A stretch of DNA of 64,000 nucleotides from an uncultured delta proteobacterium (lineage in GTDB: Bacteria; Desulfobacterota; Binatia; Binatales; Binataceae): contig CAVRVY010000003.1 of the NCBI GenBank assembly GCA_963724765.1, forward strand, positions 480,001 to 544,000, written 5' to 3'. Numbering within the stretch: position 1 is the first letter of the stretch; each line of letters begins with the position of its first letter. The translations under genes and the position numbers were made by a program. The notes under the pieces were generated by a model. It searched no databases. It had not been told where the DNA came from and saw only the letters and a program-made list of their open reading frames with translations. This document shows, piece after piece, positions 1 to 58,632 of the stretch.

Positions 1-398
1 CGATCGCCTGCTCAATCCTGGTCTTCAATATGTTCGCGGCCGCGATCCTCACCGCGGCCGCGCGTACCCGGGTCAAGCAATTTCTCAATCCGGAAGATGC
101 CCGAGTGTTGGGCGGCGCCGGCGTCAAGGAGGAGCATCCCGGCGTGCAACGGATGCTCCGGCTGCACCGCAACAACCTCGAGAACATCCTGCCCTTCTTC
201 ACTGTGGCGCTGATCTTCGTCCTGATGGGAGCCTCGGCTTTCGGGGCGCAGATGTATTTCTACACTTTCACCGGCGCGCGGATCGTCTACACGATCACTT
301 ACGCCGCGAAACTGCAGCCGTGGAGGACTGCGGCCTTCGCGCTCGGAGCACTCTGCATGGTCGGGATGCTGGTGCAGATTCTGATCGCCGCGCTCTGA
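1..398 (+). CDS. MAPEG family membrane protein (5' partial)
   Basis: RxHxNxLENxxPF and F..AR..YT..Y motifs; frame is open to the window edge upstream of ATG 30. Confidence 0.85.
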   Translation, partial: IACSILVFNMFAAAILTAAARTRVKQFLNPEDARVLGGAGVKEEHPGVQRMLRLHRNNLENILPFFTVALIFVLMGASAFGAQMYFYTFTGARIVYTITYAAKLQPWRTAAFALGALCMVGMLVQILIAAL

Positions 399-12482: not shown

Positions 12483-13130
12483 TCAGCGCGAACCTGCGAT
12501 TTGCGCGATTTGGAGGAGATCGGCGCGCAAGCCCTGCAGCGCCGCCCGGCGCTGACTTAAGTTCGCCGCGTCCTGGTCGGAAAGCTCACCCAGGTAGCAT
12601 CCGCGATCCGGCAAAACGAGCACCGCGCGGTAGGGGAACCCCTTGCGCATCCGCGGCCACACGCGATCGGCGACAAGGCCCTCCAGGGCGGCCTCGCTCA
12701 CGCGCTCGTGGATTCGGCCGTGCTCGTTGTAGACGAGCGCGGTGGCCGCACGCAGACGCGCGCCGCGGCGCGACGGCTCAACGCTGGCCATCCGGCGAAT
12801 CACTTCGTCGGCGAGCGCGCGGTCGAGGTCTCCATGCGCGGCGGCGTCGCCGCCGGCAAGCCATCGATGCGACCGCACGCCGGGCTCGCCGCCAAGCGCG
12901 TCGACCACCAGCCCGCCGTCGTCGGCGATGGTCGGCAGATTGGCGCGCGCGAAATAGAAGCGCGCCTTGAGCAGCGCGTTCTCGATGAAGGTGGCGCCGG
13001 TTTCTTCCGGAGCATGGCCGTCAACGCCGGCCTCGCGCAGTGAAATCGGCGCGAGATCGTAGTCACGCAGGAGTAGCCGATACTCGTCGAGCTTGGCGGG
13101 ATTGGTGGTGGCAACCAGCAGTGGTTTCAT
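12483..13130 (-). CDS. rdgB: Non-canonical purine NTP pyrophosphatase (Ham1/RdgB family)
   Basis: ATTNPAK, EETGATFIENALLKA, ADDGGL..ALGGEPGVRS, SQR. Confidence 0.82.
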   Translation of the reverse strand: MKPLLVATTNPAKLDEYRLLLRDYDLAPISLREAGVDGHAPEETGATFIENALLKARFYFARANLPTIADDGGLVVDALGGEPGVRSHRWLAGGDAAAHGDLDRALADEVIRRMASVEPSRRGARLRAATALVYNEHGRIHERVSEAALEGLVADRVWPRMRKGFPYRAVLVLPDRGCYLGELSDQDAANLSQRRAALQGLRADLLQIAQIAGSR

Positions 13131-13161
13131 CGCGCCGCTGACTGATTCCTGACCTCGCAAG

Positions 13162-14349
13162 TCATTTCGCTTTAACCTCGTAAGTTATCTTGAGCGCCGC
13201 GCGCTCGCGATGCTCCTCGAGCGCGAGTTCGATCAAACGATCGATGAGCTGCGCAAGCGGCAGACCCGAAGCCTCCCATAGTTTCGGATACATGCTGATC
13301 GCGGTAAAGCCGGGGATGGTGTTGACTTCGTTGATATAGATTTCGCTGAGCGCGGGGCGGGCCAGGAAATCGACCCGCGCCATCCCGCGCAGCCCCAGCG
13401 CGCGAAACGCAGCGCAGGCAAGCTCGCGCAGGTGCTCGCTCTGGGCCGCGGTCAGCGCGGCGGGAATCTTGACCTCGGCGCCGTCGGGATCGACGTACTT
13501 CGATTCGTAGCTGTAGAACTCGTGGCGTCCCTTGATGACGATTTCGCCGGCGATCGACGCCTTCGGCCGTTCATTGCCGAGCACCGCGCATTCCAGCTCG
13601 CGTCCTACGCAGGCGGCCTCGATCAGCACCTTGCGGTCGTACGCAAAGGCGTCCTCGAGCGCCGCTGCGAGCGCGCTCTCGCTCTTGACCTTGCTAATGC
13701 CGACCGACGAGCCGAGCGCATTGGGCTTGACGAACAGCGGGTACTCCAGCGAGCGCGCGAGGTCGGCCACACGCCCGGGCTGCTCGCGCCATTGCCAGCG
13801 CTCGACCGCCGCGTAGCGCACGACCGGCAATCCGGCTTCGCGCAGCAGGCGTTTCTGGACGTCCTTATCCATCCCGACCGCGGAGCCGAGCACGCCCGCG
13901 CCAACGTAGGGAAGGCCCGCCAGCTCCAGCAGTCCCTGCACGGTGCCGTCCTCGCCATAGCTGCCATGCAGCACGGGAAAGACCACGTCGAGCGGACCGG
14001 GGAGTCCTTTTGCCGCACCTCGCCCTGCGCCTCGCGCCACGGCCGTTCCGGCGCCCTGGCCGTTGCCCGGCGCCTCGACCAGCGAGTTTCCGGCGGGATG
14101 CGGCAGCAGGCTGACCTCGACACCGCCGCCGGCGAGCGCCTCCAGGCGCGGCCCCGCCTCAGCCAGCATGCGCAACGCGTCGGCGCGCAAATACCAGCGG
14201 CCGTCGCGGCCGATCCCGATCGGCACCACTTCGTAACGCGCCGGATCCATCGCCGACATCACGGTCAACGCCGAGCGCAGCGAAATTTCGTGCTCGCTCG
14301 AGCGTCCACCGAACAGCACGCCGACCCGGATTTTCTTTGGCTCAGCCAT
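13162..14349 (-). CDS. ddl: D-alanine--D-alanine ligase
   Basis: FGGRSSEHEIS, LHGSYGEDG, GSSVG, YESKY, NEVNTIPG. Confidence 0.96.
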   Translation of the reverse strand: MAEPKKIRVGVLFGGRSSEHEISLRSALTVMSAMDPARYEVVPIGIGRDGRWYLRADALRMLAEAGPRLEALAGGGVEVSLLPHPAGNSLVEAPGNGQGAGTAVARGAGRGAAKGLPGPLDVVFPVLHGSYGEDGTVQGLLELAGLPYVGAGVLGSAVGMDKDVQKRLLREAGLPVVRYAAVERWQWREQPGRVADLARSLEYPLFVKPNALGSSVGISKVKSESALAAALEDAFAYDRKVLIEAACVGRELECAVLGNERPKASIAGEIVIKGRHEFYSYESKYVDPDGAEVKIPAALTAAQSEHLRELACAAFRALGLRGMARVDFLARPALSEIYINEVNTIPGFTAISMYPKLWEASGLPLAQLIDRLIELALEEHRERAALKITYEVKAK

Positions 14350-14496
14350 TTTTTTGAACCGTCCCACCCGCGCGGCCGCATCGAAGCGCCACGCTCGCGG
14401 CTCTCGATGCGGCCGCGCTCAAAAACGAATGCCTCCGTGTGTGATCGATGGCGTCGGCTGGCCCAATGCAAGCCCTTCGCGGACTCTACGCAAGCT

Positions 14497-15951
14497 CTAC
14501 GGACGATAGTTGGGCGCTTCCTTGGTCACGAAGACGTCGTGTACGTGGCTCTCGCGCTGGCCCGCGTCAGTGACCCGGATGAAGCGCGCGCGCCGGCGCA
14601 ATTCGGCGAGATTGGCCGAACCGATATAGCCCATCCCGGACTGCAGCCCGCCGACCAACTGTTCGATATTGGAGGCCAGCGGCCCGCGATGCGGCACGCG
14701 GCCCTCGATTCCCTCGGGCACCAGCTTGCTCTCCTCGACGTCGCTCTGGCCGTAACGATCGCGCACCCGCTCGCTCATCGCGTCCAGCGATCCCATCCCG
14801 CGATAGAGCTTGTAGGTCCGGCCCTGGTAGAGAATCGTTTCGCCGGGGCTCTCTTCGGTGCCCGCGAAGAGCGAGCCGATCATCACGGCCGCCGCGCCGG
14901 CCGCCAGCGCCTTCACGATGTCGCCCGAGAAGCGGATTCCGCCGTCGGCCACCAGTGGGATGCCGCGTGGCTCGGCGACCGAGATGCAATCCATAATCGC
15001 GGTTATCTGCGGCACGCCGACGCCCGAGATCACGCGCGTGGTGCAAATCGATCCGGGGCCCATCCCGACCCGCAGCGCGTCGGCGCCCGCGTCGATCAGG
15101 GCCTTGGCGCCCTCGGCGGTGGCGACGTTGCCGGCCACCACGTCGATCTCGGGATGGGCGAGCTTGGTCGCACGCAGCGCGTCGATCACGTTGCGCGAAT
15201 GGCCGTGCGCGGTGTCGATGCACAATACGTCGGCGCCGGCGCGCACCAGCGCGGCCGCGCGTTCTTCACGCTCGGGCCCCACGCCAATCGCGGCGCCGAC
15301 TCGCAGCCGGCCCATCTTGTCCTTGCTCGAATGCGGATGGCGCGTCGCCTTGTCCATGTCCTTGACCGTGATGAGGCCGCACAGGCGATGACGTTCGTCG
15401 ACCAGCGGAAGCTTTTCGATGCGATGGGCCTGAAGGATTTCCTTGGCGTGCTCGAGACTGATGCCGGGATGGGCGGTGATGACGTTAGTGGTCATCACTT
15501 CGCGCACCAGCTTCTCCATGCGCTTCTCGAAGCGCAGATCGCGGTTGGTGAGGATACCGACCAGGCGGCCGTCGGCCACGACCGGCAGGCCCGAGATGCC
15601 GTGGCGTTCCATGGTCGCGAACGCATCGGCGATCTTCTGTTCGGGATGGACCGTGACCGGATCGGCGATCATGCCGCTCTCATACTTCTTCACCGCGGCG
15701 ACCTCGGCGGCCTGGCCTTCGATGGAGAGGTTGCGATGAATGAAGCCGAGACCGCCCATCTGTGCGATCGCAATCGCGGTGCGCGATTCGGTCACCGTGT
15801 CCATCGGGCTCGAGACCAGCGGAATACGCAGATGGATGTTGGGAGTCAGCATCGTCGCGACGTCGCAGCTCGAGGGCAGCAGGTCGGAAGCCTGCGGCAG
15901 CAGCAGCACGTCGTCGAAGGTGAGTCCCTCGCGAAGCTCCGAATGGGGCAT
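14497..15951 (-). CDS. guaB: IMP dehydrogenase
   Basis: [11 protein letters not shown] pair, [28 protein letters not shown]. Confidence 0.98.
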
Positions 15952-15963
15952 TTGGGAGTCTCC

Positions 15964-16038
15964 TTATGAAAAAAAGCCCGCGGGTATCCGCGGGCCTTCA
16001 ACCATGTTTCTGGATGCTGCTATTTCGTGCAGCGCCAT
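15964..16038 (-). CDS. Candidate leaderless leader peptide MALHEIAASRNMVEGPRIPAGFFS
   Basis: ATG 5 nt after the -10 box; ORF spans the terminator; stop TAA overlaps the guaB SD (TAAGGAG). Confidence 0.5.
   Translation of the reverse strand: MALHEIAASRNMVEGPRIPAGFFS
15969..15995 (-). terminator. Intrinsic terminator inside the guaB leader
   Basis: GCCCGCGG-ATAC-CCGCGGGC followed by U7, ending about 18 nt before the guaB ATG. Confidence 0.85.
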
Positions 16039-16043
16039 ATCGC

Positions 16044-16072
16044 AATCTAACAAAATGGACCCGCCCGATCAA
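16044..16072 (-). promoter_or_regulatory. guaB promoter TTGATC-17-TAGATT (extended -10 TG)
   Basis: Near-consensus hexamers with 17-bp spacing. Confidence 0.7.
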
Positions 16073-16199
16073 TTCGACCAATTCGTCGACCGACTCGCAT
16101 GCGCCGGCCATAATCCTCGTCGGGACGCAAGGTTGTGGCGCGCTCGGGCATATGTTGGCCAAGCCGGTTCGCTGAGCAGTCAATCAGTCGAGCAAGCAC

Positions 16200-17120
16200 T
16201 CACCGTTCGTCGTTCGGTTCCTTCCACTCTTGCGGATAGAGCAGCAGCAGATCGCCGCCGAGGTTGCGCACCAAAAAGCGCTGGACCTCCGCCACCGCGC
16301 GCTCCAGTGCGCGGCCGCCGATAAGCCAATGGCCGCGGCCACGCACCACGCGAATTGTCGCACCGGCGCGCGCGGCGAAAGCGTTCATCTGATCGAGCGG
16401 CGCAAACGGATCGGAATCACCCGCCACGATCAGCCGCGGTACGGCGCGCCCCGTCTCGGCAAGCTTGGTCCGGCCGAACTTGATGCCGTAGAAATTGGTT
16501 GCGCCGCGCACGACTTCGAGCGCCGCGCATGCGTCGTCGGCCACCAGAGCCTTCGTTAGCGCTTCGCGCTGGAACGGCTCGGCGTCGGCCAGCAGCTGAA
16601 AGAGCACGGCGCCGCGCGGCGGCTTGAGTGCGCGGCCAAACAATCGCGCCGGCCAGTTCGCCGCGCCCGTCACCAGCGGCGATCGACACCCGGGAAGCAT
16701 CGGCGCCAGCGCGACCGCCGCCCTGACCTGCGGAAGCTCAGCCGCGTTGAGCGCTAGCAATCCGCCCAACCCATGACCGACGACGATTACGTCGCGCCCG
16801 AGCGCCGCTAAACCCTCGGCCAGTAGCGCGGCGAGACCGTCGAAGCCGGCCGCGCTCGGAACCGAACTCTTGCCAGTGCTCTTGCCCGCGCTTTTGCTCG
16901 CGCTCGAATTCGATGGGGGTGCGTCGATCCGCGCTGCTTGCGCCGCCGCGCGGAGATCGGGCGCATAGACCTCCCATCCGATACTCGCGAAATATCCGCG
17001 CGCGACCGCGAGATGGCGCGCGGTGGTGAAAAGCTCCGGCAGCAGGACCAGCGGCCAGGCGAACTTCAGCGGTTCGGGCCGCTCGCATTCGGCCGGGATT
17101 CGGCCAAGCCGCGTCTCCAT
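16200..17120 (-). CDS. Alpha/beta-hydrolase fold protein (nucleophile Ser apparently replaced by Gly)
   Basis: VGHGLGG in place of GHSxGG; AGDSD and GHW motifs. Confidence 0.7.
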   Translation of the reverse strand: METRLGRIPAECERPEPLKFAWPLVLLPELFTTARHLAVARGYFASIGWEVYAPDLRAAAQAARIDAPPSNSSASKSAGKSTGKSSVPSAAGFDGLAALLAEGLAALGRDVIVVGHGLGGLLALNAAELPQVRAAVALAPMLPGCRSPLVTGAANWPARLFGRALKPPRGAVLFQLLADAEPFQREALTKALVADDACAALEVVRGATNFYGIKFGRTKLAETGRAVPRLIVAGDSDPFAPLDQMNAFAARAGATIRVVRGRGHWLIGGRALERAVAEVQRFLVRNLGGDLLLLYPQEWKEPNDER

Positions 17121-17344: not shown

Positions 17345-17374
17345 AAAAAGAGGGCCCCTTTTCAGGGGCCCTCT
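17345..17374 (-). terminator. Intrinsic terminator of the small basic ORF transcript
   Basis: AGAGGGCCCCT-GAAA-AGGGGCCCTCT followed by a U-tract on the - strand. Confidence 0.88.
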
Positions 17375-17465
17375 CGCGGTACGGGGTTATTACACCCCGG
17401 CTTATCGCAGCAGCATGCCCGGCATCTTGGCCAGCCCCCGGTTTCCCGGAGGGAAACTTACGTCG

Positions 17466-17561
17466 TTACTTCTTCTTTTTCTTGCCGGCTTTCTTTTTCA
17501 TATTCGTCTTTAACTTAGATTTGGATTTTGTAGCGGAACTTCTTTTCTTCTTCACTGGCAT
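17466..17561 (-). CDS. 31-aa Lys-rich small protein MPVKKKRSSATKSKSKLKTNMKKKAGKKKKK
   Basis: Perfect SD TAAGGAGGT 4 nt before ATG; own promoter and terminator; below the ORF-track cutoff. Confidence 0.8.
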   Translation of the reverse strand: MPVKKKRSSATKSKSKLKTNMKKKAGKKKKK

Positions 17562-17652
17562 AGACACCTCCTTAACAGTTGCTGCTGCCGGACAAGCTCC
17601 GAAACCTTTAAAGCCATCTGGCTGAGCCGTGATAGCCTCGCCTTCAGGCTGG

Positions 17653-17681
17653 ATTATAGAAACCTGTTATTCAAAAATCAA
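17653..17681 (-). promoter_or_regulatory. Sigma70 promoter TTGATT-17-TATAAT
   Basis: Consensus -10, near-consensus -35, AT-rich upstream element. Confidence 0.8.
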
Positions 17682-17816
17682 GCAGAACGCGAGTAGTTTA
17701 TAAAGAAATTTTAAAATCGGAAGAATCCTTGCCCCGCCTCATCTTTACCGGATTAAAATGGCGTTCAGTCATAAGCCCGCTTGAAGTTCGACGCAAGCCT
17801 TTTTACCATGCTGCTT

Positions 17817-36850: not shown

Positions 36851-36962
36851 GCCTTATCCAGAGCGGCGGAGGGACTGGCCCGATGATGCCGCAGCAACCG
36901 GCCCACCAAGGGTGCTGGTGCTAACTCCAACGAAGCCCGAAATAGGCTTCGGTAGATAAGGC
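36851..36962 (+). promoter_or_regulatory. SAM-I (S-box) riboswitch
   Basis: CTTATCCAGAG..GGAGGGACTGGCCC.ATGA..CC.GCAACC..GGTGCTAACTCC..AGATAAG; P1 GCCTTATC/GATAAGGC. Confidence 0.95.
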
Positions 36963-57968: not shown

Positions 57969-58434
57969 AGGCTGCCTCCGACGAAAGTCCTGTCGAAGTC
58001 TCGAGCCAGGCTCTGACCGGGCTCGGAAAATCCTGCTCTATGTCTGGTCCACTGACGCATCGCCTGAGAATTGATAACGATCAGTCGAACGGGGTTAAGC
58101 GTACAGGACTGCTGCGTTTGCGAGAATGAAATTGCGAATTCGTCAACTCGTTGCAAGAATTAACAAACACCAACGGCCGCTAGCCAAGGCATCGCTACGC
58201 AGAAAACTACTTGCATTCAGATCGCAAAGTATTCAATCACGTATTAAAAATGACTCAGGTGTGCGCCTTCTAGCGCTTATCATCATCAAAGCGGAGCCAG
58301 GATAGATTTCCGGCAGATGAAATTTTGATCCGGGTAATCATCTCCATAGCGGATTGGGCCGCAAGGTCGGCGCTCGTGGATCTCACTTTCCGGATGCGTT
58401 GACAAAGCAGCCATTCCACCGGAAGATCATCCTG

Positions 58435-58632
58435 ATGGCCAGAATTACCGTAGAAGATTGTCTGGAAAAGATTCCCAACCGCTTCGAACTCGTGCTGGGA
58501 GCCGCCAAGCGTGCCAAGCAACTACTCAAGGGTGCCCGCCCGCTGGTGGAAACTGACAACAAGGAAGTCGTCACGGCGCTTCGCGAGATCGCCGCGGGCA
58601 AGGTTTCGATCGAAAGGCCCGAAGAGGCCTGA
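58435..58632 (+). CDS. rpoZ: RNA polymerase omega subunit
   Basis: [32 protein letters not shown]. Confidence 0.96.

Follow-up and report, generated by a model that had tools for sequence, protein, structure and literature searches.

A conserved guaB leader in Binatia: a candidate ribosome-gated attenuator with possible sensing of the initiating nucleotide

Introduction

How does RNA polymerase reach a gene that lies directly behind a terminator, and what might decide how often it does so? The guaB gene of an uncultured soil bacterium raises this question in a 64,000-nucleotide stretch of DNA (the whole stretch analyzed here, hereafter the window), in which a predicted intrinsic terminator ends just upstream of the guaB start codon. 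The product of guaB, IMP dehydrogenase, commits purine flux to GTP, and to our knowledge the ways in which guaB senses the guanine pool have been worked out for only a handful of model bacteria, where they involve repressors, riboswitches on neighboring genes, or (p)ppGpp. Among papers open without a subscription, we found no related one on leader-peptide attenuation at guaB, and none on a guaB leader under start-site control by the initiating nucleotide or by GTP. Among the matches listed for each topic in that literature, none described gating of a leaderless start codon by the choice of start site, and none of those on the Binatota concerned gene regulation. Here we describe, by comparing sequences, a leader whose promoter, start codon, mini-gene and stop signal probably let ribosomes, and perhaps let the balance of ATP and GTP, set the amount of guaB.

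Results

A promoter, a short ORF and a terminator in front of guaB

On the minus strand upstream of guaB, the sequence reads TTGATC, 17 nt, TAGATT with a TG extension, 5 nt and then ATG (Table 1), so that the A, T and G of the ATG (16038–16036) are the 6th, 7th and 8th bases after the −10 element. The initial annotation had listed TTGATC-17-TAGATT, gcgat-ATGG, a 24-codon ORF, a hairpin followed by U7, and a stop codon within TAAGGAG; all of these were confirmed on that strand, and its placement of the A at the 6th and the G at the 8th base after the −10 was likewise borne out by the sequence. The candidate leader ORF translates as MALHEIAASRNMVEGPRIPAGFFS, runs through the terminator hairpin (GCCCGCGG-ATAC-CCGCGGGC, followed by T7 ending at 15969), and stops at a TAA (15966–15964) that lies within TAAGGAG, 12 nt before guaB. 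The leader was predicted to fold with −35.5 kcal/mol (z = −4.7), and none of 200 shuffled sequences folded as well. The unit from promoter to terminator is ~70 nt long. Because the T-run ends only 17 nt before guaB, whose ATG is at 15951, guaB must be transcribed through the predicted terminator.

Table 1. Positions of the features of the guaB leader in the window.
Feature	Positions	Strand	Basis or remark
−35 hexamer TTGATC	16067..16072	−	Sequence reading; followed by a 17-nt spacer
Extended −10 TG-T-TAGATT	16044..16052	−	Sequence reading; −10 TAGATT at 16049–16044, TG at 16052–16051
Discriminator GCGAT, 5 nt	16039..16043	−	Bases vary freely, length fixed
Invariant Y-ATG-G	16035..16039	−	Candidate start sites A and G; candidate 5′-terminal start codon
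Candidate leaderless leader ORF, 24 codons and TAA	15964..16038	−	Kept in relatives, peptide variable
5′ hairpin P1, GCUGC/GCAGC core	16011..16037	−	Predicted folds; specific to some clades
Intrinsic terminator, extended stem-loop and U7	15969..15999	−	Folding; predicted
TAAGGAG, guaB Shine-Dalgarno sequence overlapped by the stop of the leader ORF	15960..15966	−	Sequence reading
guaB (IMP dehydrogenase), 484 aa	14497..15951	−	TIGR01302, 630 bits against a cut-off of 481.5

Promoters were assigned here and below by consensus matching only. A simple consensus scan missed both the guaB promoter (8 of 12 matches, with the cut at 9) and the terminator of the guaB leader. On the same strand and 3′ of guaB lie genes for a D-alanine–D-alanine ligase and an RdgB/HAM1 non-canonical purine NTP pyrophosphatase, which may share one operon with guaB (window 12483–15951, −, for the three genes together).

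A five-nucleotide spacing and an ATG kept throughout Binatia

We collected the 5′ regions of guaB from 41 relatives, from 80 named records, and from 28 of 31 genomes of a sister order, and scanned the resulting 140 non-duplicate loci for TTGnnn, 16–18 nt, TAnnnn, 3–9 nt and ATG. An ATG stood at a spacing of 5 in 115 of the 140 loci and only at a spacing of 6 in three, and 22 had none; these loci come from kin and are not independent, such that the counts overstate the number of independent events. By their titles, the 22 loci without the motif belong to non-Binatia lineages (e.g., Dadabacteria, Bdellovibrionota and Desulfobacterales), and the close loci are from metagenome-assembled genomes of Candidatus Binataceae, Binatia or Binatota. 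All 41 of the relatives sampled had the ATG at a spacing of 5 (two of them judged by eye). The leader alignment that the initial annotation had named as a check found the distance from the −10 to ATGG to be fixed.

The start codon was invariably ATG in the 115 loci, the base before it was T or C in all guaB leaders inspected, and the extended −10, TGnTAnnnn, was kept in relatives. Outside the promoter, the terminator stem and the Shine-Dalgarno sequence, only Y-ATG-G was invariant, with the loops, the linker and the peptide all varying. With the spacing at 5 in so large a part of the loci, the feature is, to judge by its conservation, not a product of chance. Within the genomes compared, the element proves to be class-wide in Binatia and specific to guaB, and we are confident that a real, conserved regulatory leader precedes this gene. 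When the genome of the window was searched for units consisting of a promoter, a short ORF and a terminator, the guaB leader was the only one at a spacing of 5, and one unrelated match each was found at spacings of 4 and 7.

Six soil and rhizosphere metatranscriptome runs shared only 4–6% of words. Four of these runs gave contigs of relatives' guaB coding region (85–95% alike), none of them over 15958–16236; contigs of this kind cannot show starts.

A spacing of five is atypical among leaderless candidates

In the genome of the window, the first starts of ORFs of at least 100 aa that follow TGnTAnnnT were found at a spacing of 6 in 18 cases, 7 in seven cases and 5 in a single case. Taking a −35 element together with TAnnnT instead, 4, 16, 12, 7 and 13 starts were found at spacings of 5, 6, 7, 8 and 9, respectively. 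By these counts, leaderless candidates across the genome prefer a spacing of 6–7, and that of guaB is atypical. This preference agrees with the usage of start positions in E. coli, in which the 6th, 7th, 8th and 9th bases are used in 8, 55, 29 and 7% of cases (PMC5730371). GTG is common among the leaderless candidates, accounting for 8 of the 18 listed at a spacing of 6.

Two other genes with promoters of this kind served as controls. The spacing at rpoZ is 7 in the genus of the window and 7–10 in other genera, with class-level kin having a Shine-Dalgarno sequence in its place, and the spacing at xseA is 6 in the genus of the window and 7–9 elsewhere in the family. Because these spacings drift, the fixed spacing at guaB is not the default for such promoters. 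In the window itself rpoZ looks leaderless (TTGACA-17-GAAGAT-7 nt-ATG; 58409–58437, +), and its ATG at 58435 is the 8th base after GAAGAT, as the annotation had stated. The same statement about ftsB did not hold up, in that no convincing −10 precedes its likely start at 17808 at that distance. More generally, leaderless start codons here usually sit at the 7th or 8th base, and not at the 8th alone.

Two observations near ftsB stand apart from the guaB leader. An 8-codon ORF starting ATGGCG lies upstream of the likely ftsB start (window 17758–17784, +), and we saw no convincing promoter for it. On the other strand (window 17348–17681, −), a promoter close to consensus, TTGATT-17-TATAAT, with 10 of 12 positions matching, precedes a strong terminator (12-bp stem) by ~280 nt; an Rfam search of this region returned no family match (best BjrC68, 19.5 bits against 39), and it may hold a small RNA or a small-protein gene between a hydrolase gene and ftsB.

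Stop codons of the leader ORF fall at the terminator and the guaB start

The leader ORF was present in 79 unique leaders, and its peptide was not conserved, a combination (open frame, variable peptide) that the initial annotation had foreseen for relatives. A hairpin followed by a T-run was found in 70 of these leaders, with differing stem sequences, and changes within a genus fell in the hairpin loops and the linker. The stop codon of the ORF came after the terminator in 49 leaders, inside it in 2 and before it in 19, with the remaining 9 having no terminator; in 51 of the 79, then, the ORF reaches into the terminator or beyond it. In the 19 leaders with an earlier stop, this stop lay 4–15 nt 5′ of the terminator stem, and no stop lay further upstream in any of the 70 terminator-bearing leaders. 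A ribosome at the stop codon of such an ORF would cover only the base of the stem. Because the ORF stops before the terminator in 19 of the 79 leaders and 9 have no terminator at all, the predicted attenuator is not universal among them.

We rejected the openness of the frame as weak evidence for coding. The leaders are GC-rich, and open frames are therefore common in all frames: past the terminator, frames 0, 1 and 2 were open in 17, 13 and 14 of 18 clusters, respectively, such that frames 1 and 2 were open nearly as often as that of the ORF. The first stop codon fell within −22 to +20 of the guaB ATG in 15 of the 18 clusters in frame 0, as compared with 3 and 1 of 18 in the other two frames. 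Among the 79 unique leaders, the stop of the ORF was within −22 to −1 of the guaB ATG in 37 and within +1 to +20 in 17, often inside the Shine-Dalgarno sequence (TAAGGAG, TGAGGAG or TTAGGAGG) or as an ATGA overlap with guaB, which extends to relatives the overlap of stop and Shine-Dalgarno sequence first noted in the window. These positions look like the signature of a translated ORF, one that would deliver a ribosome first to the terminator and then to the start of guaB. We slightly favor the view that read-through of the terminator depends on translation of the leader ORF.

Other elements of known attenuators were sought in the leaders. No runs of regulatory codons were found in the leader peptides of the 79 unique leaders, and visual inspection of the predicted folds showed no alternative, antiterminator pairing of the ORF region with the terminator's 5′ arm. 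Hairpin P1 appeared in predicted folds from the window's own genus and from a Binatus-like clade; over the 79 leaders its folding was no better overall than that of shuffled sequences (mean −9.0 versus −8.1 kcal/mol), and we do not claim it as a conserved element. In three leaders from other Binataceae genera (L017, L055 and L058), the first hairpin after the ATG is followed by 6–9 U, so that a terminator-like element occurs twice in a row; the ORF of two of these leaders ends right after the first U-run.

The same start at a leaderless guaB and at gmk

In a sister order, that of genome G027 (families f4 and f12–f15), the ATG of this promoter type is the start codon of guaB itself; for example, TTGAAA-17-TATAAG-GCAAC-ATGG leads directly into the guaB reading frame. 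The spacing was 5 in 25 of 27 such loci and 6 in the other two. Most of them have an in-frame TAA inside the −10 element, which excludes upstream guaB starts in these loci. By its sequence, guaB is itself leaderless in this order, and it follows that the A at the 6th base must work as a start site there. In a few other lineages, a leader of ~31 nt has no terminator, and its ORF overlaps the guaB start.

When long ORFs were searched for TTGnnn-16..18-TAnnnn-5-ATG as their first start, only six were found in the genome, one of which was the gene for guanylate kinase, gmk (contig 4 of G000, 1347270–1347890; TIGR03263, 216 bits). Both guaB and gmk act in GTP synthesis, gmk being the next step of the GTP pathway. 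This link was found post hoc. The gmk gene of Binataceae had a spacing of 5 in 21 of 25 loci by pattern (20 with ATG, 1 with GTG) and in two more by eye, with the last two unclear; the base before its start codon is not always a pyrimidine, and the design includes no terminator. In 12 class-level relatives gmk follows an upstream gene and has no promoter of its own, which makes the gmk promoter of Binataceae a later, separate acquisition. Two other genes, guaA and purA, had neither such a leader nor a mirror-image design.

A model in which the choice of start site gates translation

The anatomy of the leader and its conservation we read directly; from them we infer, in the following model, where transcription starts, that the ORF is translated, that the terminator acts, and that nucleotides influence the outcome. 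A sigma-70 type promoter with an extended −10 would set the ATG exactly 5 nt downstream of the −10, and an RNA begun at the A would carry a 5′-terminal AUG open to leaderless translation. In Binataceae this AUG would open the short ORF without a conserved peptide, and the ribosome would be carried into, or right up to, the strong intrinsic terminator and block its hairpin. Transcription would continue, and the ribosome would finish at or near the ribosome-binding site of guaB, leading to translational coupling. Ahead of these steps, initiation at the 7th base, the modal position, would be disfavored, this base being a T, with the A at the 6th and the G at the 8th base on either side of it. RNA started with ATP would have the AUG, and RNA started with GTP would lack it; guaB expression would then go up when ATP is high relative to GTP and go down when GTP is high. 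A variant of this model dispenses with the G start: high ATP may simply be what initiation needs when it occurs one base 5′ of the modal position.

Several features are consistent with such an input. An A and a G, start bases for ATP and GTP, both lie within the 6th to 9th positions, and Y-ATG is invariant in the 115 loci; only the A start carries the AUG, and, reading from the sequence, RNAs from the alternative starts would differ in whether they can be translated. Because only Y-ATG-G is invariant beyond the promoter, the terminator stem and the Shine-Dalgarno sequence, a specific signal is most plausibly read at initiation, and the variability of the loops, the linker and the peptide leaves no room for an aptamer. 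A productive ATP-started RNA and an unproductive GTP-started one would be homeostatic for the GTP branch. The leaderless guaB of the sister order and the gmk design point the same way and lend indirect support, and a choice between starts would seem to fit both equally well. In E. coli, the start that is chosen varies with the amount of initiating substrate present (PMC5730371). YRY and YRR triplets direct the start site (PMC12641261); YAT and TGG, which flank the T at guaB, are such triplets.

Other observations speak against sensing. The A at the 6th base may be a normal start in the sister order, with no G alternative in use, and a spacing of 6 is tolerated there in two loci. The single GTG start at gmk speaks against an A-specific sensor. 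The non-pyrimidine bases before some gmk starts and the absence of the design at guaA and purA likewise count against the overall reading. We also considered capping of the A-started RNA with NAD, which does not fit, in that its preferred context has a purine at −1.

Taking these points together, we give nearly even credence to the overall reading, a cis-regulatory guaB leader that acts as a ribosome-gated attenuator with sensing of the initiating nucleotide as its likely input. That the input is nucleotide sensing at initiation we propose tentatively, at somewhat less than even confidence. We are more doubtful about the full form of the proposal, in which RNA polymerase itself would read the ratio of ATP to GTP at the guaB and gmk promoters of Binatia without a protein or an aptamer, with only the ATP-started RNA translatable, gating the translation of guaB directly in one order and acting through the leader ORF and terminator in Binataceae.

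Discussion

The guaB leader has counterparts among known attenuators. E. coli pyrBI is controlled by UTP-sensitive, ribosome-mediated attenuation, with a leader ORF that runs through an intrinsic terminator. The guaB leader resembles it in having a leader ORF through an intrinsic terminator just upstream of a gene for nucleotide biosynthesis, with a ribosome that would block the hairpin, and differs from it in that the ORF lacks a Shine-Dalgarno sequence and opens at the predicted 5′ end, in that no NTP-sensitive pause tract is evident, and in that the ORF can stop just before the hairpin, as in the 19 leaders described above. With leader-peptide attenuators more broadly (the trp, his, leu and pyrBI class) it shares a short ORF and an intrinsic terminator; its peptides are variable and have no runs of regulatory codons for a sensed amino acid. 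Another counterpart is found in the polycysteine ORFs of mycobacteria, in which a leaderless, short first cistron controls downstream genes and senses cysteine through its Cys codons (10.1101/834739). The guaB leader is likewise predicted to have a leaderless, short ORF as its first cistron, but one lacking both the regulatory codon runs and a conserved peptide.

A second set of counterparts responds to the initiating nucleotide. In promoters of the rrnB P1 type, a start off the modal position puts strain on the open complex and makes it responsive to the initiating NTP; the rrnB P1 start lies further downstream (at the 9th base), whereas the start proposed for guaB lies one base upstream of the modal position. 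At pyrC a longer RNA folds and hides the Shine-Dalgarno sequence, whereas at guaB it is the shorter RNA that would be unproductive, having no start codon at all. NTP-sensitive switching of start sites is named for pyrC and pyrD of E. coli and Salmonella (PMC5730371). The guaB promoter is like these two in having alternative start bases within the 6th to 9th positions and, as we propose, in sensing a nucleotide that is the end product of the regulated pathway and letting the start decide translatability; it is unlike them in that the effect would pass through a terminator in most lineages and in that its switching is proposed from sequence. Promoters initiated with ATP and with GTP are reported to respond oppositely to the GTP pool in Bacillus subtilis and Staphylococcus aureus (PMC3113569; PMC11953324). 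Those +1A and +1G promoters have a single start, the strength of which changes, whereas guaB would have two competing starts, with translatability as the read-out. The guaB leader would thus combine two known kinds of control, attenuation by a leader ORF and NTP-dependent selection of the start site, and a mechanism of this sort is plausible.

The same anatomy, including the link between the ORF and the terminator, would serve a ribosome-gated attenuator that senses no nucleotide at all: every RNA would start at the A, read-through would report how readily 70S ribosomes load on the 5′ AUG, guaB would follow general translational capacity or growth rate, and the unusual spacing would be left over from the history of this promoter. 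The leaderless guaB of the sister order, where the A works as a start site, is in keeping with this explanation, as is the control of downstream genes by leaderless short ORFs in mycobacteria (10.1101/834739). It leaves unexplained why the spacing at guaB stays at 5 when those at rpoZ and xseA drift, why GTG is absent at guaB, and why gmk of Binataceae separately gained a spacing of 5, and we consider it unlikely, while giving it appreciable weight. A further step away, the ATG might not be translated at all, with Y-ATG-G serving as a promoter start element or persisting as a relic of an ancestral leaderless guaB start, and the terminator acting as a constitutive partial stop or belonging to the upstream gene. 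In favor of this view, open frames are common in GC-rich leaders, the leader peptide varies, some of the ORFs stop short of the terminator, other leaders have no terminator, and E. coli uses the 8th base more than the 6th (PMC5730371), which here would yield RNA without the AUG. But a start element would not require all three bases of the ATG to be invariant in 115 loci; frame 0 has its stop near the guaB start in 15 of 18 clusters, as compared with 3 and 1 of 18 for the other frames; no stop precedes the terminator stem by more than 15 nt; and an essential gene that begins 17 nt behind a strong terminator calls for some means of read-through. An untranslated ATG strikes us as quite unlikely.

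Sensing could also occur after initiation. In an attenuator of the pyrBI type, low GTP would make the polymerase pause at G positions before the terminator, and the ribosome would catch up and block the hairpin, with no role for the choice of start. In 49 of 79 leaders the ORF extends through the terminator, as at pyrBI, and guaB belongs to the GTP pathway, but we saw by eye no conserved G-rich pause tract between the start of the ORF and the terminator, where the linker is rather A-rich and variable, and pausing would explain neither the fixed spacing nor the order with a leaderless guaB nor the gmk design without a terminator. We regard it as very unlikely. That the ~70-nt unit is a riboswitch, a leader bound by a protein of the PyrR or TRAP type, or a separate gene for a small RNA or small protein ending at the terminator seems highly improbable to us: its length would suit such a unit, and it gives weak, sub-threshold Rfam matches to leader and small-RNA families, but in the scan for known motifs that the initial annotation had suggested, no family in Rfam 15 reached its gathering score on the guaB leader (best OmrA-B, 25.2 bits with 40 needed, and Trp_leader, 23.2 bits with 41 needed), and the weak matches rest on the terminator hairpin. 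Moreover, only ~40 variable nt separate the ATG from the terminator, the loops, linker and peptide are not conserved, and the 5′ hairpin folds no better overall than shuffled sequences. The window does contain one Rfam family at threshold, and only one: a SAM riboswitch (RF00162) at 36851–36962 (+), which scores 94 bits (gathering score, 44.4).

An uncultured class thus keeps a five-base motif at a fixed and unusual distance from the −10 element, at two genes of the GTP pathway, and guaB occurs behind it in three architectures: as a leaderless gene, behind a short overlapping leader ORF, and behind a leader ORF with a terminator. Even if the choice of start is not the sensor, the guaB leader would still be a clear and widely conserved leaderless leader-ORF attenuator outside the Actinobacteria. 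If the proposal is true, Binatia would balance their purines at these genes without a protein or an aptamer, a means of control of which we found no description. With the choice of start as the sensor, nucleotide-dependent start selection and leaderless translation would be linked in a new way, in a compact element of ~100 nt that lends itself to in vitro assays with RNA polymerase from any bacterium.
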